Source: an archaeon (GTDB lineage Archaea > SpSt-1190 > DYHY01). From it: 45,641 bases of DNA. Positions 11,997-38,272 of this stretch are shown here, one piece after another. The notes under the pieces are model-generated. The model saw nothing but the letters and a program-made list of their open reading frames with translations. It did no database searches and was not told the DNA's origin. The DNA lies in NCBI GenBank assembly GCA_037442745.1, contig JBBIPP010000011.1, forward strand, positions 1 through 45,641. Reading direction: 5' to 3'. Both the position numbers and the translations under genes were made by a program. How positions within the stretch are numbered: the first letter of the stretch is position 1; the number at the start of each line of letters is the position of its first letter.

Positions 11997-13928
11997 ATGG
12001 CTCCAATCAAAAGCAGGCTCAAACTCCGGAAAAGGCTCAGGCGGGCGGGGGAATTCTCCGATTCTGGAGCGGACAAAAAGAGCGTCACCTCCGGGAGCAT
12101 TGTCAAGGGCGCAATGTCGAAAATAAGGAACAGGATTCTCGCAAAGCGCCTTCAGGCAGCCCGGCTCTCCGCAAGCCAGAGGATAAACGTGAACGTTAAC
12201 TCCCCCCAAGGGGGCTATCCCCAGACGCTCAATATTGAGGGGTTCCTTAGGAATGCAAAGGGTAACGAGGATGAGGACGAGGATGAAGATTCCAAATACA
12301 AGGGATTCTCCCTCGGGGAGGACGGGGAATTCGGGGTCGGTGCCGGAACTGGCGAGGTTTCCGCCGAATGGAAGGAGAAGAGCAAGGCGAACATCCGGGA
12401 ATCATACCCCTTAATTGCGTCCGAGAGCGGGTCAGTCTTTGCGTATGTGCAGATTTTCTGGAGCCCGACTGAACAGTCCCTGATTTATCAGGTGGTTGAA
12501 CCGGGAATTAGCCCCCAGGAGACCGAGCTCCTGAAGAAAATTGAGAAAAAACTGGAGGAAAAGCTGGACATTGATTTCACGGCAGTCTCCCAAGCAAGCC
12601 AGTTCGCGTATTTGAAGGAGAATTTCTACAAGGTAATTGACCTCTTCAATGTCAGGATAACCGATGAGCAAAGGACGCGCTTTGAATACTATCTTTTCAG
12701 GGATTTCGTCGGGCTAAACGAACTGGAACCCCTGATGCACGACCCGCAGATTGAGGACATTTCCTGCGACGGCGTCGGAATCCCGGTATATGTAGTTCAT
12801 AGGAACCCGGAATACGGGGAAATGCGCACAAACATCCAGTTCCCGACAAAGCAGGAGCTCGATTCCTTCGTTGTCAAGCTCTCCCAGCGGTGCAGGAGAT
12901 CGATATCCGTAGCTACTCCCTTACTTGACGCAACGCTTCCTGACGGGAGCCGTCTCCAGGCAACTCTAGGTTCCGACATTGCAAGAAGGGGGAGCAATTT
13001 CACAATAAGGCGCTTCTCCGAAAGGCCATTCACGCCAGTCGACCTGATAGAAATGGGGACTCTTTCGTCCCTCTCACTCGCATACATATGGTTTTTGGTT
13101 GAGCAGGGAAAATCCCTCCTCGTCTCAGGGGCAACAGCAACTGGAAAGACAACTGTCCTCAACTCAATCTCTCTTTTCATCCAGCCAACGAAGAAGATTG
13201 TCTCAATTGAGGACACGGCAGAACTCCAGCTTCCGCACCCTAACTGGATTCCACAGGTCGCACGGGCGATTTCGAGCGAGAAGAGATACGGCTCCGTCGA
13301 AATGTTCGACCTCCTGAAGGCCGCGCTCCGTCAGAGGCCCGACTACATAATTGTTGGCGAAGTCAGGGGAGCGGAAGCGAACGTAATGTTCCAGGGAATG
13401 GCAACAGGGCACCCTGCACTCGGGACAATCCACGCAGACAATGTCCAGAAGGTTGTTGACAGGCTAGTCACCCCGCCAATATCCCTCTCTCCGGCAATGC
13501 TTGAGAATCTGGACGCGGTAATTTTCATTGTAAGGACGAAACTCAAGGGCCAGTATGTGAGAAGGTCGAGCCAGATTGCCGAGATCAGGAAAATCAGCTT
13601 GAAGGACGGGAAACTGAAAAGCAACGCAGTGTTCGAATGGAACGCTGTGGAGGACAAGGTTGTCCCAAAGGACCCGAGCATAATATTGGAGAAGCTCGCG
13701 CACTTTAGGGGGATTGCAAAAGAGAGCATAATGTCCGAACTCGGGAGGCGGGCGCAACTCCTCGAATGGCTGAAATTGAAGCATGTCAAAGACTACAAGC
13801 TCTTCGCAAGCTATATTGCCAGATATTACACGAATTCGGAAGAGCTGATGAAAATAGTGACAAAGGAGCTCTCCGATTACAGGGCGTCTGAGGAGAAACG
13901 AAGGTCGGGAGGGGCTGAAGCGAAATAG
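11997..13928 (+). CDS. Type IV pilus assembly ATPase (VirB11/TadA/FlaI family)
   Basis: Walker A GATATGKTT, IEDTAEL, LRQRPDYIIVGEVRG, TGH and TIHA motifs. Confidence 0.95.
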   Translation: MAPIKSRLKLRKRLRRAGEFSDSGADKKSVTSGSIVKGAMSKIRNRILAKRLQAARLSASQRINVNVNSPQGGYPQTLNIEGFLRNAKGNEDEDEDEDSKYKGFSLGEDGEFGVGAGTGEVSAEWKEKSKANIRESYPLIASESGSVFAYVQIFWSPTEQSLIYQVVEPGISPQETELLKKIEKKLEEKLDIDFTAVSQASQFAYLKENFYKVIDLFNVRITDEQRTRFEYYLFRDFVGLNELEPLMHDPQIEDISCDGVGIPVYVVHRNPEYGEMRTNIQFPTKQELDSFVVKLSQRCRRSISVATPLLDATLPDGSRLQATLGSDIARRGSNFTIRRFSERPFTPVDLIEMGTLSSLSLAYIWFLVEQGKSLLVSGATATGKTTVLNSISLFIQPTKKIVSIEDTAELQLPHPNWIPQVARAISSEKRYGSVEMFDLLKAALRQRPDYIIVGEVRGAEANVMFQGMATGHPALGTIHADNVQKVVDRLVTPPISLSPAMLENLDAVIFIVRTKLKGQYVRRSSQIAEIRKISLKDGKLKSNAVFEWNAVEDKVVPKDPSIILEKLAHFRGIAKESIMSELGRRAQLLEWLKLKHVKDYKLFASYIARYYTNSEELMKIVTKELSDYRASEEKRRSGGAEAK

Positions 13929-14029
13929 TCGGAATTGCGGAAGTCGATCCATACACTAAATTCTCGATAGCAATTTTCGGGAGCCTGATAGAGTCGAACG
14001 AATACCTCTTCGCACCCCTTAGGGAGGAC

Positions 14030-14809
14030 ATGAGGCGGGCGGGAATGAAGCTAACTGTCGACGAATACATGTCGTCCGCCCTTATGACAGGGGTAATCAC
14101 CCCTATAATGACTTCGCCAATGGCTTTCATAATATGCGTCGCTCTCGGGCTCCCTTTCCATGCGACTCTCGGAGTAACTTTCCTTGTCGCTGTAACGACC
14201 TTCGCCCTGATAATGTCGCTTCTCTACTTCTACCCGACAATCAGGGCCGAATCAATGAAGAAATCAATTGAGAACGCGCTTCCCTTTGCCACAATCTACC
14301 TTTCGACTCTTGCTGGAACTGGAATGACTACTGACGCAATATTCAAGATTCTCGCGGACTTTCCGGAATATGGCGAGATATCAAAGGAAGCGAGGGGGAT
14401 AATTGCCGACACGGAGCTCTTCGGCCTTGATATTGCGACAGCTCTCTCTAGGGCGGCCGAAAGGACGCCTTCCGAAGAGCTGAAAGGGCTCCTCTGGGGA
14501 ATGCGCTCGACTCTCATTACTGGAGGCGACCTGAGGTCTTTTCTGATAGAAAAGGGCAAGGGATATATGCAGAATTACAGGAGGAACATTGACAATTATG
14601 TTGAAGAGCTTTCGCTTTTCACTGAACTCTATATAACCGCTGTGATTGTCGGGAGCATTTTCTTCATAATAATGTCGACAATAATGAACATGATAGGGAC
14701 GGGGAGCGGGGCCGCAATGGTAATGATCCAAAACATTGTCGTCTACGCAATGCTTCCGATGATATCGGTCGGCTTCATGATACTAGTTTCAATGATTTCG
14801 CCGACATAG
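14030..14809 (+). CDS. tadC: TadC / T2SS F-domain platform protein 1 (true start probably further upstream)
   Basis: IENALPFATIYLSTLAGTG, FGLDIATAL, TPSEEL and GGDL motifs. The frame stays open back to about 13919. Confidence 0.9.
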   Translation: MRRAGMKLTVDEYMSSALMTGVITPIMTSPMAFIICVALGLPFHATLGVTFLVAVTTFALIMSLLYFYPTIRAESMKKSIENALPFATIYLSTLAGTGMTTDAIFKILADFPEYGEISKEARGIIADTELFGLDIATALSRAAERTPSEELKGLLWGMRSTLITGGDLRSFLIEKGKGYMQNYRRNIDNYVEELSLFTELYITAVIVGSIFFIIMSTIMNMIGTGSGAAMVMIQNIVVYAMLPMISVGFMILVSMISPT

Positions 14810-14907
14810 GGGGGATAAGAACGGCAACTGAAAACTCGGAAAGGGAGAAACCAAAGAGCGAAATAGAGCAAGTCCTCCTCAAAGTTACGGATACCAAGCA
14901 CAAGGTA

Positions 14908-16029
14908 ATGTATTTCTCGGGGGTATTTGTAGTTGCCCTAGTTTTCCTCAACTTTTTCCTCAACAAGTTCGATGTGCCCTCAGCAGTCCAGTATCTTCCG
15001 TTCGTCTTCGGAATCGGGGCCGCGCCCTATCTCTTCTACCAGTACTTTGACTATACGCGGACCAAGGCAATTGAGGACAAGTTCCCGGACTTTTTGAGGA
15101 GCCTAGCCGAAGCCCAGCGGTCGGGTATAACGCTGATTGACGCAATACACCAGGCGCGGGACGTTGACTATGGGGCGCTTACCCCGGAAATCCTGAAAAT
15201 GTCGTCACAATTGTCCTGGGGCGTTCCTTTCCCGAAGGTAATGAGAATGTTTGAGGACAGGATGTCTCGCTCCGAATTCATCAAGAGGACTGTTACCGTT
15301 GTTATGGAGGCTTTCGAGAGCGGGGGGGACATTGCTGAAGCAATGAGTTCGGTTGCGAGCAACGCCGTCCTTGTAAAGGATCTGGAAGCTGAGCGCCAAA
15401 ACAAGCTGGCGCAACAGGTCCTGGTAATGTATGTGATTTTCTTCATATTCTTGGGAATGGTAATAGTCCTCCAGAAGATTCTCGGCCCACTCTTCACAAT
15501 GAACCTCTCGGGAGGTGGCGGAGGCCTCTTCGGCGGGGCTACGGGAGTCGGGAGCGTCTCCCAGCAGTTCGGGCCGTCTTACTACAGGAAAATGTTCTTC
15601 TCAATGGTAGTAATCCAGGGAGTTTTCAACGGCCTCCTTGCCGGTCAATTGGGCGAGGGGCGGGTCGTTGCCGGAATAAAGCACGCGGCAATAATGCTAA
15701 TAACCGGAGTCGCAATTTTCATGGTGGCGCTTCCGGCCCAGGCTCTTCTCCTCGACATCAACACTCCGGAGATTCCGGTCAAGCCGAACAACTTCTACAC
15801 AATCCAGGGAAGCGCTTTCTATGCTGACGGAACGGCGGTCCTAGGCGGGCGCGTGATAATTGTAATTGACGGGGTCAGGTATGAGACAACAACCCAACAG
15901 AGTGGCCAGATTGAGTACAAGCTAAAAGTCCCGGCAGTTGTCGGAAAATACAAAGTCGACATAACGCTTGAGCCCGTGGGCTCTGCAAAGCCAGTGACAA
16001 AAACAGTCACTCTTACAGTGAGCAGATAA
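14908..16029 (+). CDS. tadC: TadC / T2SS F-domain platform protein 2 with C-terminal Ig-like extension
   Basis: IEDKFPDFLRSLAEAQRSG, YGALTPE, ESGGD, IQGVFNGLLAGQLGEG and GIKH motifs, followed by a beta-rich tail of about 95 aa. Confidence 0.9.
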   Translation: MYFSGVFVVALVFLNFFLNKFDVPSAVQYLPFVFGIGAAPYLFYQYFDYTRTKAIEDKFPDFLRSLAEAQRSGITLIDAIHQARDVDYGALTPEILKMSSQLSWGVPFPKVMRMFEDRMSRSEFIKRTVTVVMEAFESGGDIAEAMSSVASNAVLVKDLEAERQNKLAQQVLVMYVIFFIFLGMVIVLQKILGPLFTMNLSGGGGGLFGGATGVGSVSQQFGPSYYRKMFFSMVVIQGVFNGLLAGQLGEGRVVAGIKHAAIMLITGVAIFMVALPAQALLLDINTPEIPVKPNNFYTIQGSAFYADGTAVLGGRVIIVIDGVRYETTTQQSGQIEYKLKVPAVVGKYKVDITLEPVGSAKPVTKTVTLTVSR

Positions 16030-19634: not shown

Positions 19635-20024
19635 ATGCGCGGAAGAAGAGCACAGTTCTTCATAATTGCGTCAGTGATAATTATTCTGAACCTACTTGCA
19701 ATTGGCGCAATTGTCCGAAAGAGCTATTCGGGGAATTCGGAGAGGCCGAGCCAGGAGATTGCAATTGCCTCAGATTTTAACCGGACTGTCTTTGAGATCT
19801 ACAAAAGCCCCCAGGCGTTTCGGAGGAACATCCAGGCGCTTCAATTGGGAATCCAGAAGGGCGCGAGCTTCTCAAGCCAGATTTTCATCGAGTGCATGGG
19901 AGAGACCGACTGCTCGAGAGCCCGGATAGGGGAATGCATATCGAGCGACTGCAACACAACAATACTTGTCAAGGGCACTTCAATGGAAATTGGGACCGAT
20001 TTTTCCGGAAGAATGGGCCGCTAG
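19635..20024 (+). CDS. Minor pilin-like protein
   Basis: Class III signal RRA/QFFIIASVIIILNL. Confidence 0.8.
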   Translation: MRGRRAQFFIIASVIIILNLLAIGAIVRKSYSGNSERPSQEIAIASDFNRTVFEIYKSPQAFRRNIQALQLGIQKGASFSSQIFIECMGETDCSRARIGECISSDCNTTILVKGTSMEIGTDFSGRMGR

Positions 20025-22175: not shown

Positions 22176-22312
22176 TCTTTTTTCCCTCCAGGAAAAACAA
22201 TTGTTCCGTTCAGCTTTTATTTTTTCCGTTCTTGCCGGCTTTGCCTAAATAGTGGCGGCTGCCCATAAAGTCATTGATTTGCCTAAAAACACTTACTATT
22301 GTTATGTAACAG

Positions 22313-22690
22313 TTAAGCTTCTTGCGCACCCCAACTGTATTGAACGAATCCCAGATTCACGGTAAAATTGAAATTTTTCTTGAACTTGTCCACATCCTCC
22401 ATAACATCTATTCCATTTGAAGTTATGTCTACAATTGCAGCAATAACTGGCAAAGTGCTACCCACTGTTCTAATAACTTTCCCGTGGATTAACTCTTTCT
22501 CAATCAAGTATTGAAGCGCAAAAACTACTCTATTCTTATCCCACTTCGTTGTCTGCATCAAATCATTTGTTTGGGGCATTTCTGCTCCCACTCGTTTCTT
22601 TTCATATATGAAAGTTAGAAGCTCGCCTGCGTCTTTCTGGATGCCCATTTCAGAGCAAAAACGACAGTTGCCCTTATTAGAGTTTTCCAC
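22313..22690 (-). CDS. Small winged-helix-like hypothetical protein
   Basis: LLTFIYE...VVFALQYLIEKELI...ITSNGIDVME wHTH pattern. Overlaps the res stop by 1 nt. Confidence 0.7.
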   Translation of the reverse strand: MENSNKGNCRFCSEMGIQKDAGELLTFIYEKKRVGAEMPQTNDLMQTTKWDKNRVVFALQYLIEKELIHGKVIRTVGSTLPVIAAIVDITSNGIDVMEDVDKFKKNFNFTVNLGFVQYSWGAQEA

Positions 22691-25278
22691 TATCCTCTGA
22701 TTTCAAGTGTCCTGTTGAACTCTTCCCTGAAGGCCGGCTTCGTCTCTTCGTTGTAGAACGGAAGTCCTACAAGTTTGAAGGTAGCATTCTCGCTGAGAGT
22801 TTCAAGCCTGTATGCTGAAGCAATCTCTCGCAAAAAGTCCTGTTTCCAGGCATCTTTTTGGACGAGGTGGGTTCCTTTAGGCTCGATAAATAGCTGGTAA
22901 TACAGCCACTTGCCGCTTTTCTCCTCTTTCACAAAAAGAACGAAATCCGGCTCTGTTGCAGCTCCGTCTGAAAACCGATATATCTTGAAGAGGGACTCGT
23001 TTCTCAGCAGGTATATGTCGGAAAACTTGACCTTCAGGGCGTCCAGAGAGTCGTTTATGAATTTGACAAAACTCTTCTCCTCATCCGTTCCGTAGTTCTC
23101 ATCATAGACATACCAGTTCTTGGCGCTTATGTCGAGCCGAAGGTCTGAATTTGTTGTTGAACTCATTGGAACTCCAAGCTCCCTGCTTGATGAGTTTTCC
23201 ACGTCTATTGTTATTTGTTTATCTACGGCAACTTTGCTTATGTTGAAACTCTTGAATAGCTTCGTCCCTTTGTATTCTGTGTGTTCCTTCTTTATCTGCT
23301 TCTCAAGCTCAGAAAGAACTGACATCGCAATTTCGAGTTTCTGGTCCTGCGACAGATTATCTACTATCTCAGAGGAGGAAGTAACCTCAACTTCTATGTT
23401 TGAAAGCCAGTTTGCGAAGTCTGTCATTGACTCGATTTTTGGGAAAAGCGGGTGTATCGTGTCGAAACGGTAAAAGTCCAGTTTGTCCATCGCCTTCCTT
23501 AGGACGCTGTTGAATTCCTTGAGTTTGAACGCCTTTGTTTTTCTCTCTTGAGAAACTGGTCGGAAGGTTTCGAATATTACGACCTCTTGGCCTGCGCCCC
23601 CTTTCATATCGTATTTGTAGGCCTTTTGGATGTCAAGGTCGGAGAAGCTTGCTATCCTCGACCGGTCCACTTTCACCTTCTCGTTAAGAAAGATAAGCCC
23701 GTTCTTCCAAAAGTCGGTTTTCTTTAGCAGGTCTTTTACCTTGACTTGAACCACTTTCTTTGGATTCTCCGGAATTATTCCAGTTGTCTTCAAGGCAATT
23801 GAGAGTTCGGAGATGTATTTTGGCTGGTTAAGGCTATGATAGTAGAGCTCCTCAAGGATTTTCAGGTCGTCTGAAGCGTCGTCATATTTCCGCTTGAATC
23901 GGTCTTGATTGACGTTTATGACAAAGGGACAATATCTCGCTCCCCGTCCGATTAATTGAGCTTCTCGAAGTGTAGTTGTTCCGGGTTGGTTGTTGTCGAA
24001 GTCTCTTGTCGTATAGAGCCGCACTATGTCGAAGAGATTAAGCACATCCCAGCCTTCATTGAGCATATCGACTGCGAAAACGAGACGGATGGGGTTGTCC
24101 GAGTCTTCGAGGGAATTGACTACGAGTTGATTGTTCTCGCTCTCTGATTTGGAGTTAACCGATATTGTCTTCTCTTCGGAAAAGTCCTCTCTCAATTCAA
24201 GGGCAAGGTTTTCGAGGGTTATTCCGTTTCTTTCGAAATAGGAGAACGCTTGGGAAATGACCGTTCCACCAGCTTGCCGTTTGAGTTTCTCCAGGTCGGA
24301 CGCCTTCAATTCCCTTATTTTTTGAACAAGTTTTTGGGAGAAGTCTTCTGATTCGGCTATTGTCTTGGATTTCATCAATATTACCGGCTTCATAGTCAGG
24401 TGATTTTTCTCGGCAATTTTTCTTCGGTATTGACTCAAGACGACTGCCTGGAGCGCTCTATCGAAAGTATTGAAATTAGATTGGAGAACCTTCACTTCTT
24501 TCGAATAGCCGTCTCTTCTGAACTCCTTGAGTGTGTATTCGTAGAGAATTTTGTTTTCATACTTTTCCTTGATTGCGGGGTTGCTCAGGTCAAGGGTTGC
24601 AGTATATTCGAGCATAATGTTGGCGGGATTTCTACTGAAAATACCGGCAACTGTGTGTTCCCACGTTGTTTTCGCTTCTTCTTCGTCCCTTCCCAAGTGG
24701 TTTCTCGTCCAAGCGTTTATGTGGTGCGCCTCGTCCGAGATTATTACTATCTTCGTGTTCTCGAACTCCTCATACGTGAGACTGTTCTCTCGTGGGGCAT
24801 TCAGGGCAGAGTGAAGACCTTGTATTGTCGTAAATACTATATTTATGGCATCCTCTGAAGCACCCTCAAGATTGTCTACTTTCTGTATCTTGACCTCTTT
24901 GCCGTCAAGCAGGAGCTTTTCATTGAATAGATATTTCGATGAAGCGAGATTTAGGAAGTTTTCCTGTGTCTTCTTTATTATGTTCGTGCTGTTGACGAAA
25001 AACAAAAAATTGCGATATCCGAGCGTGTAGAGATATAGGACGTTTGCCGCCATAAGCAGGGTTTTCCCGCTTCCCGTAGCCATATGAAAGAGCAGATGCG
25101 TCGGTCTTGCCCGCCGCTGGTCTTTAGTCAGGCAGTAGATAAATCGTCCAATAGCTTCTTTCTGGTATTCCCTTAATGGAAACTTTTGGTTCAGGTTCTT
25201 CTCTATCTCGGAAGGAACCTTGCGGTCAATAAGCCCCTCGTCCGATATAACATTATACCGTTCATTGAGGGAACTCAT
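22690..25278 (-). CDS. res: Type III restriction enzyme Res subunit (SF2 helicase plus PD-(D/E)XK nuclease)
   Basis: HMATGSGKT, DEAHH, LNEGWDV, QLIGRGAR and EPDF...FIEPKG motifs. Confidence 0.95.
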   Translation of the reverse strand: MSSLNERYNVISDEGLIDRKVPSEIEKNLNQKFPLREYQKEAIGRFIYCLTKDQRRARPTHLLFHMATGSGKTLLMAANVLYLYTLGYRNFLFFVNSTNIIKKTQENFLNLASSKYLFNEKLLLDGKEVKIQKVDNLEGASEDAINIVFTTIQGLHSALNAPRENSLTYEEFENTKIVIISDEAHHINAWTRNHLGRDEEEAKTTWEHTVAGIFSRNPANIMLEYTATLDLSNPAIKEKYENKILYEYTLKEFRRDGYSKEVKVLQSNFNTFDRALQAVVLSQYRRKIAEKNHLTMKPVILMKSKTIAESEDFSQKLVQKIRELKASDLEKLKRQAGGTVISQAFSYFERNGITLENLALELREDFSEEKTISVNSKSESENNQLVVNSLEDSDNPIRLVFAVDMLNEGWDVLNLFDIVRLYTTRDFDNNQPGTTTLREAQLIGRGARYCPFVINVNQDRFKRKYDDASDDLKILEELYYHSLNQPKYISELSIALKTTGIIPENPKKVVQVKVKDLLKKTDFWKNGLIFLNEKVKVDRSRIASFSDLDIQKAYKYDMKGGAGQEVVIFETFRPVSQERKTKAFKLKEFNSVLRKAMDKLDFYRFDTIHPLFPKIESMTDFANWLSNIEVEVTSSSEIVDNLSQDQKLEIAMSVLSELEKQIKKEHTEYKGTKLFKSFNISKVAVDKQITIDVENSSSRELGVPMSSTTNSDLRLDISAKNWYVYDENYGTDEEKSFVKFINDSLDALKVKFSDIYLLRNESLFKIYRFSDGAATEPDFVLFVKEEKSGKWLYYQLFIEPKGTHLVQKDAWKQDFLREIASAYRLETLSENATFKLVGLPFYNEETKPAFREEFNRTLEIRG

Positions 25279-27296
25279 CAGGCAGCCTCACCGTAGAACT
25301 GCTTGTTGAGTTTCTTGTCCGCCTCGGAAACTTTGTTGTCTTTGTCGCCAATTTCACTGAAATTGACGTAAAGCTGGTTCTTGTCAAGGCATTCCAAGAG
25401 GAACTTCTTCTGGTTAGCAAGGGAGAGTTCCGAGAAATCTTTTTTGTTCTCTTCGAACTTGCCTGGCATTATGCTGTGGCTGATGAAGGCAGTTTCCTTC
25501 ATTTCCTCCCAGAGTTTCAAGAGTTCCTTTGTTGTCTTTGCGTCCTTGACGGCTTCCACGAATTTCTCGTTTTGCTTCATAAGTTCGCAATAGACGAAGC
25601 TTCCACCGCCTTTCCAATCAGTAATTTTGCTTATGCCCGTTTGGTCGCCCTTTACGACGTTTGTAAGGCGGGCAAAGGTGCTGTTTTTGCCGTAATCGAG
25701 TTGCTCGATTCCGATGAATTTTCTTCCGAGTTTATGTGCGACTGCGCACGTCGTTCCGGAACCAGAAAAGAAATCGAGAACGAGGTCGCCTTTGTTCGTT
25801 GACATTTCTACTATTCGTTTCAAAAGAGCTTCTGGTTTCTTTCCTTTGTTCAAGGTGACGCCACCTTCGGGAGCTATCCCTTCCCAGGATATGTCCTTCC
25901 AGATGTTCGTCAAAACTGTCGAAGGGGTTAATCTTCCGTCAATTTGGCGGACTTTGTTTTCATAAAAAGTCATGACTTGTCCATTCAGAATGTATCTCGG
26001 CCGCATATCCTCTCCCCGTGACTGGAAGTATACTTTGCCGAGATTCTTCTTTGATTTTTCTCTCAAGTCTACAGTCTCTTTACTTGCATCATCATTTATC
26101 GCTGTGAGTCGAAAGACTCTCTCTTTGTTCTGAAGAGCAAATTCGCCCATTTGGTAATCAAAAAACGAACGATATTTCTGCCGTGCTTCTCTGACTGTCT
26201 TACAGCCCAACTTAGTAGCTACGAACATCGCAAGGTCTTGGATTCTCCATTCTTCAGGATTCAACAACTTGTTCTCAACGAGAGAATCGTAATTGGCATC
26301 ATATTCGCACGCCTCGTATTGGGGGTTATACTTCCATCTTTGCTTATCTTTGCCGTAGACAAGGATATACTCAGAGGTTTCGAAGAGACCGAGGTTAACC
26401 ACTTTGAAACCTGTTGGGGCACGCACGCTGACGGTTATTTTATTTATGAAATTGCATCGTTCAAAAACTTCATCCATCAATACATTGAGATAGCCTACTT
26501 CCTTGTCGCTTATTTGAACGAAAATGATGCCGTCGCTTCTAAGCAGCAGTTTGGCGACTTCCAGCCGGTTCCTCATAAAAGTTAACCACGTTGAGTGGTT
26601 GAATTTGTCGTTGTAGCTAAACTCGTCATTTCCAGTGTTATACGGCGAGTCGAGGTAAACCAATTTGATTTTCCCAGCGAACTGTTTTTTTAGCGAATGC
26701 AGAACAAGAAGATTGTTCCCTTTGACGACAAGGTTCTCTTTTGTTGGGTCTATCTCGGTTAGCTTGTGTTCGCCCTTAGCATCAATTTTCTTGAAGTTCG
26801 TGAACACCTTCCTGTCGGTAAGTCGGTCTATCTCATCTGGAGCAAGGGTTTCGTTGTAGAAAATCTCGACTCTCTCTCTCTCTCTCTCTCTCTCTACGGA
26901 TTCCATTCCCCCCTCAAGAACGCAATCTTTGTGAGGCCAGACAAGAACGACCTCTCCGCTCTTCGAAACTTCCCGTCCGTTTGTCGAAAGTCCTATTTTG
27001 TTCTTGAACACCGTATAGGAATCTGGAAGGAACGACTTGTTGTCAACGAATTTGATGAACTTGTCTCTGTCGAAAAAGAAAGTTCCCGACACCTCCACGA
27101 AGAAGTTTTCCTTCAGAACCTTGTTTGAAGCCATTATCTTCAGAAGTTCGGAGTCGAGCTTCAGGGCAAGCTCCATTATTTTGTTCTTCAGAAGTTTGCC
27201 GTCCGCAGTCAGGCGAGCATCTTTTTTCAGAGCTTCCGTCACTTCGGTCAATAATGTCAATTTATCTTCGTCTCCTTCTTCTCTTGGGCTTGCCAA
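25278..27296 (-). CDS. mod: Type III DNA methyltransferase Mod (beta class) with (AG)13 tract
   Basis: KGNNL, YLDSPYNTG (motif IV variant), KKPEALL and DFFSGSGTT. Overlaps the res start. Confidence 0.95.
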   Translation of the reverse strand: MASPREEGDEDKLTLLTEVTEALKKDARLTADGKLLKNKIMELALKLDSELLKIMASNKVLKENFFVEVSGTFFFDRDKFIKFVDNKSFLPDSYTVFKNKIGLSTNGREVSKSGEVVLVWPHKDCVLEGGMESVERERERERVEIFYNETLAPDEIDRLTDRKVFTNFKKIDAKGEHKLTEIDPTKENLVVKGNNLLVLHSLKKQFAGKIKLVYLDSPYNTGNDEFSYNDKFNHSTWLTFMRNRLEVAKLLLRSDGIIFVQISDKEVGYLNVLMDEVFERCNFINKITVSVRAPTGFKVVNLGLFETSEYILVYGKDKQRWKYNPQYEACEYDANYDSLVENKLLNPEEWRIQDLAMFVATKLGCKTVREARQKYRSFFDYQMGEFALQNKERVFRLTAINDDASKETVDLREKSKKNLGKVYFQSRGEDMRPRYILNGQVMTFYENKVRQIDGRLTPSTVLTNIWKDISWEGIAPEGGVTLNKGKKPEALLKRIVEMSTNKGDLVLDFFSGSGTTCAVAHKLGRKFIGIEQLDYGKNSTFARLTNVVKGDQTGISKITDWKGGGSFVYCELMKQNEKFVEAVKDAKTTKELLKLWEEMKETAFISHSIMPGKFEENKKDFSELSLANQKKFLLECLDKNQLYVNFSEIGDKDNKVSEADKKLNKQFYGEAA
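26870..26895 (-). repeat. (AG)13 simple sequence repeat inside mod
   Basis: Plus strand reads (CT)13 and encodes V-ERERERER-V, currently in frame. Confidence 0.95.
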
Positions 27297-27398
27297 AAAT
27301 TCCTTCCCAGTTCAGGTCCCACTTAACTCTCGGTCCCCGTATCCTCGGAGGTGTGATTCTTGGAATGCCAAAACCTATTGAGCGTTTTTTTCGTTTAA

Positions 27399-28178
27399 TC
27401 AACTTTCTCTCCTTCCTTGGTTCTGACGACCAAATCCTTCCCCTGCGAGGTCAAATCCGCCCGTCAACCAGCTTATTTTGTCCAAATGTATTCCTTGCTT
27501 TCTGCTCTTCGCCTTGCCCTTTATGTCGACTTTCAAGTTGCCTTCTCTCAAGGATTTATCAAACTCTTTCGAGAGCTGTGTGCTGTTTGGATTTGTAGGC
27601 CAGACGTCAAGAGAAAACGAGACAACTTTGTCCAAGTCTTTTATTCGTTCACCGAGTTCCCGCTTGTCCGTTAGCTGATTTATTGTCAACTGCTCTTTCT
27701 GATTATGGTATTGATTGAAGACTTCTGACAGCAAGCGTATAGGTGCGTTTCTTCCCACATCCTTCTTTGATTCGTAAACTATTGCACTCTCGGCTAAATC
27801 GATAAGGAAGGTGCTTACCTCTGCCGCTTTCCGACTTTCAACTTTGAAGTCCTTGAGACTTTCATCGAAAATGGTCTGCGTCCGGTTCTTTATCTTTCCG
27901 AGCCGCCCGTAGATACATTCGCCATCACAAGTTATTCCGCCAAATTTCCAGTCAAATCCTTCCGATAAATCTTCTTTTTTCGCCTTCACTAATAGGTCGT
28001 TTATGTCTGTCTTTGAATTTACGACGGAGAGCAGAAGTTTTCTCCGTCGCTCAATTTCATCCTTTGCCGACCCGAAGTTGGTGGTCAATTTGGCTTCGAA
28101 AGAAAGACGGGCAAACCTAAGCGTGCTGGCCATCTGTAGAAATCCCGTTTGTTTCAATTTAAAGGTTTTTTCAGTCAT
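27399..28178 (-). CDS. Hypothetical protein (DUF4747-like, tentative), possibly C-terminally truncated
   Basis: 259 aa with IYGRLGK, STFLID...IVYES and SFSLDVWPTNP. First gene of the cassette. Confidence 0.65.
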   Translation of the reverse strand: MTEKTFKLKQTGFLQMASTLRFARLSFEAKLTTNFGSAKDEIERRRKLLLSVVNSKTDINDLLVKAKKEDLSEGFDWKFGGITCDGECIYGRLGKIKNRTQTIFDESLKDFKVESRKAAEVSTFLIDLAESAIVYESKKDVGRNAPIRLLSEVFNQYHNQKEQLTINQLTDKRELGERIKDLDKVVSFSLDVWPTNPNSTQLSKEFDKSLREGNLKVDIKGKAKSRKQGIHLDKISWLTGGFDLAGEGFGRQNQGRRES

Positions 28179-28315
28179 TTTCCGTTAAATCGCCTCTTTC
28201 CGTCTTTTTCGGTTTCAAATACCGCCCCGCTATCTTTGCCCAGAAAGTCTCTGATTTGCCCATAAAGTCAATCACTTCTCCGACTTGTTAGGCAAAGCCG
28301 TTCTTGCCCGGTTTC

Positions 28316-28363: not shown

Positions 28364-28735
28364 ATGCAGTTGAGGTTTTGACATATTCTCTTGAATAGTC
28401 GTTCTTGTGAGCCTTATTTTCATTGCCGGGTTCGCGACCATTTGGGTAAAATCCGCCATCCTGAAAAAGGTCGTTCTCTTCCTTGTGAGCTTCTCCGCCG
28501 GAGCGCTTTTCGGGGAAGTTTTTTTCCATCTCCTGCCGGAGGCTGTCGAAGAAACAGGGGCTTGGACATTTCGGTTTCAATCTTCGTAATTGCCGGGATT
28601 GGAATATTCTTTATTGTCGAAAAATTCATTCGCTGGAACCGCTGCCACCTCGAGCCGCCGAAAAAGCACCAATTCCCTCCGGCATATGTTTTCCTGTTTG
28701 CGCTTGATCTCTGTTTCCTCGAGCTTTTCAATTGA
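28364..28735 (+). pseudogene. ZIP (ZupT) family metal transporter fragment, frameshifted
   Basis: LVSFSAGALFGEVFFHLLPEA in one frame and AGIGIFFIVEKFIRW in another. The C-terminal half is absent. Confidence 0.8.
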
Positions 28736-28738
28736 ATA

Positions 28739-29050
28739 TTGGTTTCGGTTTCTTGCAGCGGAATTCTGTACTTTTTATCGTTAATTCCTTTCCGGCCCGC
28801 AATTGTGGCAACCGCATTTCTCAAGGAGTTAAGTGCCCCTTCTGCGCCCCGTTTTGGGAAAATTCTCGCAATTGTTTTCTATTTCCTTCTCGGGCTCTTT
28901 TTGGAATTTTTCCTTTGGACGGAGGACCTGATAAAAGCAGGTGTTCCTAGAATGGTTTCAAAGGTTCTGGCAGTCGCATCTGTGATTGCTGTCCATGTGG
29001 CAATCTTGTGGTTACACCTTTCTTGGACAAATTCGAATTTGATTTACTGA
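28739..29050 (+). CDS. Hydrophobic hypothetical protein or gene fragment
   Basis: 103-aa ORF with 2-3 TM-like stretches; start uncertain. Confidence 0.35.
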   Translation: MVSVSCSGILYFLSLIPFRPAIVATAFLKELSAPSAPRFGKILAIVFYFLLGLFLEFFLWTEDLIKAGVPRMVSKVLAVASVIAVHVAILWLHLSWTNSNLIY

Positions 29051-29075: not shown

Positions 29076-29153
29076 TGGTAGCGGGGGAACGATTTGAACG
29101 TCCGATCTTCGGGTTATGAGCCCGACGAGCACTCCAGGCTACTCTACCCCGCT
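29076..29153 (-). tRNA. Initiator tRNA-Met(CAT)
   Basis: AGCGGGGTAGAGTAGCCTGGAGTGCTCG-TCGGG-CTCATAA-CCCGA-...GTTCAAATC...CCCCGCTACCA. Has A1-U72, three G-C pairs in the anticodon stem and an encoded CCA. Confidence 0.96.
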
Positions 29154-29245: not shown

Positions 29246-30322
29246 ATGGCAAATTCGATTGCAAAGGTAAGGGCGCCTACGAACATTGCCTTGGTGAAAT
29301 ATTGGGGGAAGAACCCATATTTCGAGAAATACAACATACCGACAAAGAGCTCCCTCTCCTTCTCTGTCGAAGGTCTCTACACTGAGACAATTGTCGAGAG
29401 AAATGACAGGGGAAGCGGGAAAATTGACTTCACGTTGAACGGCAAGAGAATACAGAATTCCTCCCCGGAATTCTCCTATGTCTCGGAATTCTTCGAGAAG
29501 GCTTTCGCAGTCTGGCCATTTATGCAGGATTCGGATTATTCAATCTCCTCAGAGAACAATTTTCCGACCGCAGCCGGTTTCGCTTCCTCTGCCTCAGGTT
29601 TCGCCGCCCTTGCATTGGCAGTCTCGAAATGCCAAGCAGGGTTCCTTGACAGGTATTCGAAAGACGAGAAAGCCCTCTCAGTTTTCGCCCGCCTAGGTTC
29701 GGGGAGCGCAACTAGAAGCATCCCGTTCAGGGGAGGTCTTGTACAATGGAAAAGGGGTCTTGACCCGAGGGATGCGCCGAAAGAGAAAAGGGAGCCGACT
29801 GAAGCCGAACTGTTCTCGAGCTTTGCCGAGTCAATCCTCCCACCAGAGCATTTCAAGGATCTCCGGCTCTTCTATGTCAAGGCAGATACAGGAGAGAAGA
29901 AAATAAAGAGCAGGGCTGGGATGAAGCAGACAATCTCAACGTATCCACTCTATTGGGACTGGGTAAAACACGATGAGAACGTCCTCCTTCCGACAGCAAT
30001 TGAATCAGCCAAAAAAATGGATTGGAGCGAGCTCTTCCGCATGACAATGGCGCTATCGGACGGCCTCCATTCCGCAATTCTCTCGACTGCGCCCTCAATC
30101 TCCTACCTGAACGACACTTCAAGGGAAATTGTCTCGGGAATTAACGAACTGAATTCCGAAAGAAATGTCTCGGCCTACACATTCGATGCCGGTCCTAACC
30201 CAGTAGTTTTCTCGACAAGAGAGTCTGAGGAGCGTGTGAAGGAAATGTTGGAGAGAATTGTCGGCGAAGAGAACATTTTCCGGACAATGGTCGGAAGGGG
30301 ACCGGAATTCCTCAAGGTATGA
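29246..30322 (+). CDS. mvaD: Diphosphomevalonate (or phosphomevalonate) decarboxylase, GHMP family
   Basis: NIALVKYWGK, NNFPTAAGFASSASGFAAL, ARLGSGSATRS, SRAGM and YTFDAGPNP motifs. Confidence 0.93.
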   Translation: MANSIAKVRAPTNIALVKYWGKNPYFEKYNIPTKSSLSFSVEGLYTETIVERNDRGSGKIDFTLNGKRIQNSSPEFSYVSEFFEKAFAVWPFMQDSDYSISSENNFPTAAGFASSASGFAALALAVSKCQAGFLDRYSKDEKALSVFARLGSGSATRSIPFRGGLVQWKRGLDPRDAPKEKREPTEAELFSSFAESILPPEHFKDLRLFYVKADTGEKKIKSRAGMKQTISTYPLYWDWVKHDENVLLPTAIESAKKMDWSELFRMTMALSDGLHSAILSTAPSISYLNDTSREIVSGINELNSERNVSAYTFDAGPNPVVFSTRESEERVKEMLERIVGEENIFRTMVGRGPEFLKV

Positions 30323-30326
30323 GAAA

Positions 30327-31490
30327 ATGGCTCTTACGAGTTCCCCGGGCAAAGTCCTTTTCCTCGGGGGCTATTCCGTTCTCGAGGAGGGAAACCCCGC
30401 CCTTTCATTTGCAGTAACTGATTTGTTGGGAGAGGGCGTTGTAGCTGAGACAAGAGATTCTGACTCGTTCCGGCTACTTTCCCCTGGTTTCGGTATTGAC
30501 TCGACAATTGACCTTGAAAAAAAGGCTCCTAGGAAACCGACTCTCTCGGAAGCGTCGCTAATTATTGCCTTGAACCACCTGAAAGCAAAGGGAAGTCTTC
30601 CTGAAAAGAAATTCTCAGCAATTGTCAGGAATTCCCCGATTTTCGGGAGGTTCTCCTCCGAAGGAAAGACAGGTCTTGGCTCCTCCGCCGGAACGGCAGT
30701 CTCAATTGTCTTGTCCTCTTTTCTTGAGGCCGGCCTTGGAATTGAGGAGAACAGGGAAGAAATACACAAGCTCGCCCAAATTGCCAACTCCCTTTCGACA
30801 GGGGGGAAGGGAAGTGGATTCGATGTCGCAACAGCAGTCTTTGGAACAATTGTTTATCGGAGATTCCCGAAAACAGAATTCTCGGATATTTCCGGGCCGT
30901 GGGATTCTGGGGAAATTGAGAAAGAGGTTGGGAGAGACTGGAAAGGGATGGAAATTGAGAAATTCTCCCTCCCGGAGAAATGCACCCTCCTAATTTTTGA
31001 CATCCTTGGCAAGGGCACTGACACAAAAAAGAATGTCTCTGTAGCACGGGCTCTTTCAGAAAAGCGACCGGATAAATATTTCGAAATAATCTCCGCCCAG
31101 GCAAAATTCGAGGAAATGGCAGTTTCCGCCCTCCGGAGGGAGGAATATTCCAGTTTCCAAGAACTTGTCAATTCCGCAAGGGAAGAGTCTAGGAAATTGG
31201 CGGAAGAAGCAAAGAGGGCGGGACTCTTTGGCTTTGTTCCTGTTGAGCCAGAGTCGGCAAGGAGAACTATTGACTCCGTCCTGAAGGAAGGCCTCGCAGT
31301 TGCCGGAAGGTGCCCCGGCTCAGGAGGGTTTGATTCAGTAGCGTTCCTCTGCAGGAGGGGGGAGGAGAACCCGGGAAGAATTGAGGAAATCGGGAAACGG
31401 AACGGCCTTCCCCTGAAATTACTGCCCTGCAGGCTCGCTCAAGGAGGCGTCCGGGAAACTCCCAAAAACAATTTGGATGGAGTTAGATAG
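30327..31490 (+). CDS. Phosphomevalonate kinase, Erg8-like GHMP kinase
   Basis: SPGKVLFLGGYSVLE, KTGLGSSA, GKGSGFDVATAVFG, YRRF and PGSGGFD motifs. ATG at 30327. Confidence 0.88.
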   Translation: MALTSSPGKVLFLGGYSVLEEGNPALSFAVTDLLGEGVVAETRDSDSFRLLSPGFGIDSTIDLEKKAPRKPTLSEASLIIALNHLKAKGSLPEKKFSAIVRNSPIFGRFSSEGKTGLGSSAGTAVSIVLSSFLEAGLGIEENREEIHKLAQIANSLSTGGKGSGFDVATAVFGTIVYRRFPKTEFSDISGPWDSGEIEKEVGRDWKGMEIEKFSLPEKCTLLIFDILGKGTDTKKNVSVARALSEKRPDKYFEIISAQAKFEEMAVSALRREEYSSFQELVNSAREESRKLAEEAKRAGLFGFVPVEPESARRTIDSVLKEGLAVAGRCPGSGGFDSVAFLCRRGEENPGRIEEIGKRNGLPLKLLPCRLAQGGVRETPKNNLDGVR

Positions 31491-38044: not shown

Positions 38045-38272
38045 GTTCCCAATTGGCGGGAATTCCCCGGAATATAAGCTTTCAAAAAAGTTATAAACGC
38101 CCATGGAAAACCACACCCGTTCTTGAAAAATCAGGATTTCAACAACGAAAAGTGCTAGCAAACGAGCGACTCTTTCTATTGGGGAAACACATTTTAAGGA
38201 ACAACAACAGAATCCTCAAGGATTCTCGTAACAAAAAAAAAACAAAATCAAACAACAAGAGTGAAACACGAA

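Follow-up and report, generated by a model that had tools for sequence, protein, structure and literature searches.

By analyzing a window of 45,641 bases, the first part of a 62,815-base contig (C11) of a very small archaeal genome, we found a perfect (AG)13 tract inside the coding sequence of a Type III DNA methyltransferase gene, mod, which is followed by its restriction partner res. Two tract lengths, 13 and 14 units, occur among assemblies that otherwise share one sequence. We consider it likely, though well short of certain, that the tract is a slipped-strand ON/OFF switch of an intact archaeal restriction-modification (R-M) system of Type III, and that this switch arose independently at a new site. 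The kind of switch is known from bacteria and, as far as we could find, has not been described in archaea. A first-pass annotation of this DNA had taken the host to be an archaeon, and we could confirm this since archaeal models for small- and large-subunit ribosomal RNA scored best of their clans on contig C8. The genome counts 1,136,343 bases in 20 contigs (completeness 94.5%, contamination 0.62%). Its housekeeping RNase J has a relative at 77% identity that is labelled only as an archaeon, the next named relatives being Woesearchaeota/Nanoarchaeota sequences at about 40% identity. Comparisons at the level of the phylum cover 17 species genomes, host included.

With Tandem Repeats Finder, the tract came out as the single period-2 array of the window (13.0 copies, 100% matches, CT unit on the plus strand). 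This agrees with the first-pass annotation, which had described it as the sole long dinucleotide repeat in 45 kb, perfect, in frame, about 400 nucleotides (nt) into mod and located before the catalytic motifs. Indeed, its onset lies 401 nt past the first possible start codon (TTG 27296) and 365 nt past TTG 27260, it encodes the peptide V-ERERERER-V within the minus-strand open reading frame (ORF) of mod, and two motifs of Mod, DSPY (residues 216-219) and FSGSG (near residue 510), are both found 3' of it. We take these to be motif IV and the S-adenosylmethionine-binding FxGxG motif, respectively. A tract of (AG)8 appeared in none of 100 dinucleotide-preserving shuffles of the window. The whole genome holds 14 dinucleotide tracts of at least 5 units. 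Ten of them have just 5 units and two have 6; a single one reaches 10, and (AG)13 is the longest simple repeat of this kind in 1.14 Mb. Among the phylum genomes, (AG)8 or longer was found in 1 of 17, namely the host genome.

Then, we simulated other tract lengths. With 12 or 14 units Mod was truncated about 15 codons past the tract, while 10, 13 and 16 units preserved the frame, as expected from the earlier claim that a change of one unit would frameshift Mod. The tract also has the properties of a contingency locus, in that its unit is not a multiple of three, it is located within an ORF, and its 13 units compare with a threshold of 5 units for dinucleotide repeats given in the sections considered here of a 2018 survey of REBASE (PMC5909438).

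The evidence for two lengths comes from three sides. First, two Mod calls fall into one 90% cluster, one of 654 amino acids (aa) on the 62,815-nt contig and the other, from a 62,817-nt contig, of 509 aa; the two contigs encode the same Res. In the simulation, GTG 26807 is the first start codon in the downstream frame at 12 or 14 units and gives exactly 509 aa, whereas at 13 units the open frame extends back to 27296. The 509-aa call thus points to the tract as the place of the 2-nt excess of the 62,817-nt contig. Second, a search with the N-terminal 160 residues of Mod returned a protein of 156 aa (P0124), 100% identical over 89% of the query and found solely in Logan data, on a 14,705-nt contig of sequencing run X2. 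Its sequence reads V-(ER)4-E and is followed by a tail matching the simulated 14-unit frameshift. Over positions 26000-27700 of the window, which that contig spans, it has no deviating letter and 2 gap letters (1703 versus 1701). Third, two contigs of run X1 end at 26859 and 26904, flanking the tract on either side, which fits a mixture of lengths without proving it; run X3, from the same study as X1 and X2, had no contig covering the stretch, and no RNA run was listed as containing it. The first-pass annotation had proposed to count tract lengths in reads. Our data answer this in part, with 13 versus 14 units between assemblies of one study, at the level of contigs and not of reads. Searching the JGI metagenome contigs with the exact flank-plus-tract pattern gave 0 matches, and a degenerate pattern, (AG)7 followed by 12-42 nt and the APDEID codons, gave two, both of which are eukaryote-like microsatellites without a Mod-like ORF. 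We rejected transcriptional slippage and programmed frameshifting as the source of the difference because the difference between 13 and 14 units is present in the DNA, and such slippage is typical of homopolymers.

Next to the tract, both genes appear complete. Mod matches the Pfam families PF12564 (3e-19, residues 48-103, full profile 1-56) and PF01555 (N6_N4_Mtase; 6.6e-45, residues 210-532) as well as the PADLOC model MTase_III (4e-188). Res follows on the same strand, with the TGA of mod overlapping the ATG of res by 1 nt, and matches the Pfam family ResIII (PF04851; 2.9e-30) and the PADLOC model REase_III (3.8e-131), the latter over positions 25-856 of the 873 in the profile. Its sequence reads GSGKT, DEAH and a C-terminal PD...EPK, which we take to be superfamily-2 helicase motifs for the first two and a PD-(D/E)xK nuclease motif for the third; a relative of Res with a solved structure was not found by sequence. 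These matches bear out the earlier assignment of a Type III methyltransferase with an adjoining res, and the pair is, judging from its predicted domains, a Type III R-M system. Besides TTG 27296, the start candidates for mod are TTG 27260 (660 aa) and the NCBI call at GTG 27242 (654 aa), and TTG 27260 is likely the right one because the N-termini of homologues align there. When compared with 119 full-length homologues, Mod fits 119 of the 123 columns conserved in at least 95% of them. The four columns in which it deviates comprise one residue within the tract, two conservative changes and an S for P in DSPY. Given this match to 119 of 123 conserved columns, the mod gene does not look decayed.

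How could such a tract act? Slipped-strand mispairing at replication would add or remove units of (AG)n in the linker between the N-terminal domain and the methyltransferase core of Mod. With 13 (or 10, or 16) units the cell would make full-length Mod, and with 12 or 14 units it would meet the early stop. Type III Res recognises DNA only via Mod. Because of this dependence, and because res starts on the stop codon of mod, a frameshift is expected to silence both activities, so that methylation and restriction would be off together in that cell line, and reversibly. The slippage mechanism, its reversibility and its rate are inferred, as are a Res that is inactive when the system is OFF and whatever benefit there may be. 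A possible benefit would be bet-hedging, with virus defence set against DNA uptake or the cost of self-restriction, and methylation-dependent gene expression may be a further one. Since res is intact, defence switching comes first as a reading, and a defence switch would be no less likely than a purely epigenetic regulator. The first-pass annotation had seen here a stochastic switch of the phasevarion type. The switch itself is in keeping with the intact Type III system, the in-frame tract and the 13 versus 14 units, whereas the regulon part of a phasevarion is hypothetical.

To place the tract among its relatives, we collected 238 homologues from two protein searches, one with Mod and one with its N-terminal part. 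In the 175 that have both sequence anchors, the site holds a charged linker of 8-11 aa, for example MTKEDQKRD, versus MESVERERERERV in the host Mod. The named archaeal homologues, labelled as Thermoplasmatota, Heimdallarchaeota, Methermicoccus, Thermoproteota and Methanosarcinales, all have an ordinary linker. A search for related loci in genome contigs gave only two bacterial relatives, Thermosipho and Kapaibacterium, which served for the linker DNA alone, with an anchored linker only from Thermosipho; in two relatives, purines make up 78-81% of the linker DNA. Such purine-rich linkers are a plausible seed for the expansion of AG units. In an AlphaFold model of Mod, the mean predicted local distance difference test (pLDDT) score is 80.5, but residues 90-124 and 126-154, tract included, score below 50. 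This low-pLDDT stretch has a helical N-terminal domain on one side and, on the other, the methyltransferase core, which is modelled with confidence, and the solved Type III Mods (6k0w, EcoP15I 4zcf and Mbo45V 7dsu) align only from about residue 186 on. As modelled, the segment is likely to be tolerant of the tract. We also noticed that an unrelated Mod fragment of 134 aa (P0212), present on 5 contigs, carries a frameshift within the same purine-rich linker, which suggests that this linker is a general weak point for slippage.

Further support for a switch comes from repeats in R-M genes at two loci, a difference of (AAC)10 versus (AAC)9 between two copies of one sequence, the lack of a match to MutS_V or NucS, and the precedent of GA[n] tracts in bacteria. 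The second R-M locus is a Type IIG restriction-methylase gene that begins with ATG-(TC)6, matched by the PADLOC model REase_MTase_IIG (1e-107), with residue 14 aligned to position 5 of the profile. There, the frame of the ATG runs into a stop after 22 codons. The +1 frame, which opens two codons ahead of the ATG, continues for 907 codons, and one added TC unit would join the ATG to it. A TATA-like TTTAAAA is located about 24-30 nt upstream of the gene. The genome has about four R-M-type methyltransferase genes, of which the other two are without a qualifying repeat. Hence, 2 of the 4 dinucleotide tracts of at least 6 units are at the 5' ends of R-M genes, for which a post hoc hand estimate gives a chance of about 1e-5. 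The (GA)10 tract, on the minus strand at G000:C4:41308-41327 (L014:1809-1828), stands 6 nt upstream of the ATG of a 70-aa ORF. This ORF has no family match and has relatives of 67 aa elsewhere, and an upstream ATG is out of frame with it at the present tract length.

Contig C1 (G000:C1:1-13716) duplicates G000:C6:73921-87788, with 100% identity over 7640 nt and then 99.84% over 6131 nt, for a total of 7 mismatches. Their alignment has a single gap, (AAC)10 versus (AAC)9, which falls at the 3' end of an ORF of 626 codons and is a second difference in repeat length within the assembly. The mismatch-repair families MutS_V (PF00488) and NucS (PF01939) had no match in the 94.5% complete genome, which is suggestive, though no proof, of a host with no recognised mismatch-repair route. 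All this would be compatible with switching at several loci, that is at the Type III (AG)n, at the Type IIG ATG-(TC)n and perhaps at a small membrane protein behind (GA)10, in an archaeon without detectable mismatch repair whose population would be a mosaic of defence and methylation states. We see this wider picture as possible but rather doubtful.

Other repeats of the genome are recorded here as such. Near the (TC)6 on contig C7, no Rfam family was found. A (TTC)13 tract (L016; G000:C10:58841-58879) encodes 13 consecutive Glu in a frame of 327 codons, (AGA)9 at G000:C6:13573-13599 encodes poly-Leu near an N-terminus, and (AAAAC)7 (L017; G000:C15:6554-6588) is located upstream of an ORF that resembles, on reading its sequence, a ribosomal P1 stalk protein. 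The longest homopolymer of the genome is an A10 at 38233-38242 of the window, just upstream of the RNase J gene starting at 38261.

The system is embedded in a four-gene block of about 22.28-28.24 kb, the GC content of which is 0.44 compared to 0.489 for the genome. Of 975 six-kb segments, only 2.9% have a value as low. A 13-nt motif, TGCCCAKAAAGTC, occurs in three exact copies that bracket the mod-res block in the window, where 0.14 matches would be expected at up to 1 mismatch, and one more copy exists elsewhere in the genome. Partial repeats of CCGTTCTTGCC are found near the TGCCCAKAAAGTC copies on both sides of the block. Together these repeats may be a recombination scar or a binding site. 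A tRNA-Met gene marks the right edge of the low-GC stretch. In G001, a genome of the same genus, one contig carries conserved versions of this tRNA, of a ferritin gene and of the ORF at 19635-20024, with nothing in common within 20-29 kb. The 16 other phylum genomes gave no homologue of Mod at E<=1e-30, and of 133 genomes from another archaeal phylum a single one had Mod, in fragments on a contig of 1.5 kb. The best relatives of Mod, at 58-60% identity, belong to mixed phyla. Low GC, absence from the G001 site and from the other phylum genomes, and relatives of mixed phyla fit horizontal acquisition of the block. The first-pass annotation had gone further and spoken of a mobile cassette. This is weakly supported: the low GC, the tRNA-Met edge and the absence from the G001 site and from the 16 genomes favour it, whereas the flanking ORFs yielded neither an integrase or transposase nor any further mobility gene. 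Between the tRNA-Met and the ferritin gene, the window also holds a diphosphomevalonate decarboxylase-like gene and a GHMP kinase gene (29246-31490). In G001 the distance from the tRNA to the ferritin gene is about 0.8 kb, so these mevalonate-pathway-type genes are placed differently there.

A number of observations weigh against a switch. The 2 extra nt of the 62,817-nt contig are placed in the tract via the 509-aa call and not by reading the tract itself. The repeat was masked in the contig comparison, the gap of the X2 contig being placed through P0124, and X1 and X2 are available as assembled contigs from which minority variants are dropped, so that the lengths are assembly-level ones. Just two lengths are known, from runs of one study that is possibly the source of the assembly itself, and these runs are therefore not independent populations. 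Library amplification by polymerase chain reaction, whole-genome amplification or assembler error could yield the difference of 13 versus 14. On the side of the gene, motif IV reads DSPY with S where 115 of the 119 homologues have P (non-P in 4 of 119), and no target-recognition alleles of Mod were found, with no relative above 60% identity. A repeat-encoded peptide at the tract site occurs in 0 of the 238 relatives, in a screen blind to homopolymer tracts and to tracts in split genes of the OFF state; the survey of archaeal mod homologues that the first-pass annotation had proposed thus turned up no repeat at this site among those found. Finally, (TC)6 of the Type IIG locus is without variation, since the only call recorded is the 820-aa downstream one of the OFF state, on 2 contigs.

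What else could account for the data? The tract might have one fixed length, the second length and the contig break being technical artefacts. These would stem from polymerase stutter while libraries were prepared or low-biomass subsurface DNA was amplified, or from the way the assembler handles a low-complexity run. Dinucleotide runs are known to stutter, the depths of the two runs are modest (10 and about 13), and both the use of assembled contigs and the shared study, maybe the source of the assembly, leave room for it. However, a change at the consensus level requires that most reads have the other length, and 14 units are found in the Logan contig and, through the 509-aa call, in a separately deposited contig of 62,817 nt. 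Moreover, there is no further difference across 1.7 kb, and a tract of 26-28 nt is shorter than a 31-mer, so that it poses no repeat problem per se at k=31, which we take to be the k in use. Altogether we regard an artefact as unlikely.

If the variation is real, it could still be that of an unselected microsatellite, expanded by chance in the purine-rich linker of a recently acquired gene and representing a first step to a pseudogene. The tract is nevertheless perfect and uninterrupted, Mod and Res are otherwise intact and conserved, and a second R-M gene with a start-proximal dinucleotide tract would be unlikely without selection. The presence of the system in 1 of 17 phylum genomes, the absence of both a repeat at the site in relatives and alleles, the deviant motif IV DSPY and the frameshift that P0212, although unrelated, also has in its linker are what one would expect from such decay, which we nonetheless consider quite improbable. 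A tuning of linker length is also conceivable, in which the in-frame lengths 10, 13 and 16 would alter the ER linker and hence the geometry between Mod and Res or between Mod and Mod. The tract does code for a charged, low-pLDDT linker in which in-frame variants are possible, but 14, the sole alternative length seen, breaks the frame and cuts Mod short, and steps of one unit are the usual product of slippage; such tuning seems very improbable to us.

A slipped-strand switch at this site would have its nearest counterparts in bacteria. Simple sequence repeats (SSRs) were reported for 662 of 3805 Type III mod genes in the REBASE survey, the sections of which considered here also describe, for Mycoplasmataceae, Type III mod genes with GA[n] tracts that range from 5 to 25 units (PMC5909438), so that the first-pass mention of AG tracts in Mycoplasma mod genes was correct. 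These genes, as in M. bovis PG45, resemble the locus studied here by the Type III class, the AG/GA unit, the position in the 5' part of the mod ORF and the small genome. Unlike it, they belong to host-associated bacteria with several alleles and several mod genes, whereas the locus studied here has a single allele, in a subsurface archaeon that is free-living or episymbiotic. Also, the similarity of Mbo45V (7dsu) to the host Mod (E 6.8e-22) is limited to the methyltransferase core from about residue 220. Since the linker site is free of repeats in all 238 relatives, the tract would have arisen independently of the GA[n] tracts of Mycoplasmataceae. The phasevarions of Haemophilus, Neisseria, Helicobacter and Moraxella (modA, modB, modD, modH, modM) likewise have a mod gene set ON or OFF by an SSR frameshift, according to the parts of PMC5909438 and PMC1976455 considered here. 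Their tracts are tetranucleotide, pentanucleotide or homopolymer ones with a regulon shown experimentally, while ours is an AG dinucleotide tract. In phasevarion mod systems, res is often inactive, and several target-recognition alleles are a frequent accompaniment; in the host, res is intact and no such alleles were found.

Two further systems help to situate the loci. EcoP15I (4zcf) shares with the host system the position of motif IV before FxGxG in Mod, a Res with helicase and nuclease motifs, and the mod-res order; it is not phase-variable, and its similarity to the host is confined to the core of Mod (E 1.3e-22). Campylobacter jejuni cj0031 is said to be a phase-variable Type IIG R-M enzyme with a poly-G tract, the switching of which has reportedly been measured. 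It resembles the host Type IIG locus as a fused restriction-methylase in which a start-proximal repeat sets the frame, but has poly-G where the host has (TC)6, and only the OFF frame was seen at the host locus.

For archaea, the literature gave no counterpart. The word 'archaea' has 0 occurrences in the main text of PMC5909438 as far as it was available, and the supplementary list of its 662 genes may hold archaeal entries. A 2025 review (PMC11868660) presents, in the portion at hand, phase variation across archaeal phylogenies as future work, and a review on archaeal R-M systems (PMC11033074) has phase variation only in a reference title. No archaeal phase-variable methyltransferase is described in PMC3711429 or in the 12 of 21 archaea passages of PMC13076061 that were considered. 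No archaeal repeat-switched mod was thus found in the full-text literature, supplementary tables with possible archaeal entries aside, which matches the first-pass statement that no characterised archaeal case was known.

The coordinates of the features are collected below.

Table. Features of the mod-res region and of the Type IIG locus. Positions are those of the 45,641-base window unless a contig or locus is named.
Feature	Coordinates	Strand	Basis or remark
Type III mod, longest ORF of 672 codons from TTG 27296	25278..27296	-	Pfam, PADLOC, homologue alignment
In-frame, perfect (AG)13 tract within the Mod linker	26870..26895	-	Tandem Repeats Finder and sequence reading
Downstream part of mod from internal GTG 26807, 509 aa (P0003)	25278..26807	-	Call expected at 12/14 units
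Type III res, 862 aa, intact	22690..25278	-	Pfam, PADLOC, motifs
ORF of 125 aa, GTG overlapping the res stop by 1 nt	22313..22690	-	Weak DnaD_N-like and PHROG matches
ORF of 259 aa upstream of mod, in the low-GC block	27399..28178	-	DUF4747/DUF6731-like, a lead from language-model features only
13-nt motif TGCCCAKAAAGTC, left copy	22260..22272	+	Exact match
13-nt motif TGCCCAKAAAGTC, two right copies (28237-28249, 28257-28269)	28237..28269	+	Exact matches
tRNA-Met, right edge of the low-GC stretch	29076..29153	-	100% identical in same-genus G001
Type IIG restriction-methylase, ATG-(TC)6	G000:C8:30290-33008 (L013:1791-4509); (TC)6 = C8:30293-30304		Eco57I 7e-39

Beyond these features, the ORF at 28420-28824 gave no signal. 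A scan for sigma-70 promoters and terminators found 10 promoter-like sites versus 7.9 expected and was uninformative for an archaeon. At 11997-16029, the window also contains a gene for a FlaI-like ATPase (NF058587, 2e-126, under its cut-off) and one for a FlaJ-like membrane protein, a pair that corresponds to an archaellum or type IV pilus-like cluster within this very small genome.

On the practical side, one and the same mod gene is recorded as a protein of 654 aa and as one of 509 aa because of the tract, a point for annotation. Phase variation through repeats counts as a strategy of host-adapted bacteria, and an archaeal case of which environmental data already show two tract lengths would, if true, extend the mechanism to a second domain and to a subsurface setting outside a host. 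The locus would also let tract length and methylation be read on one long DNA molecule. Were the multi-locus picture, doubtful as we hold it to be, to prove true, it would be a first for multi-locus phase variation in archaea, and possibly for a phasevarion in archaea as well, independent of the bacterial ones.

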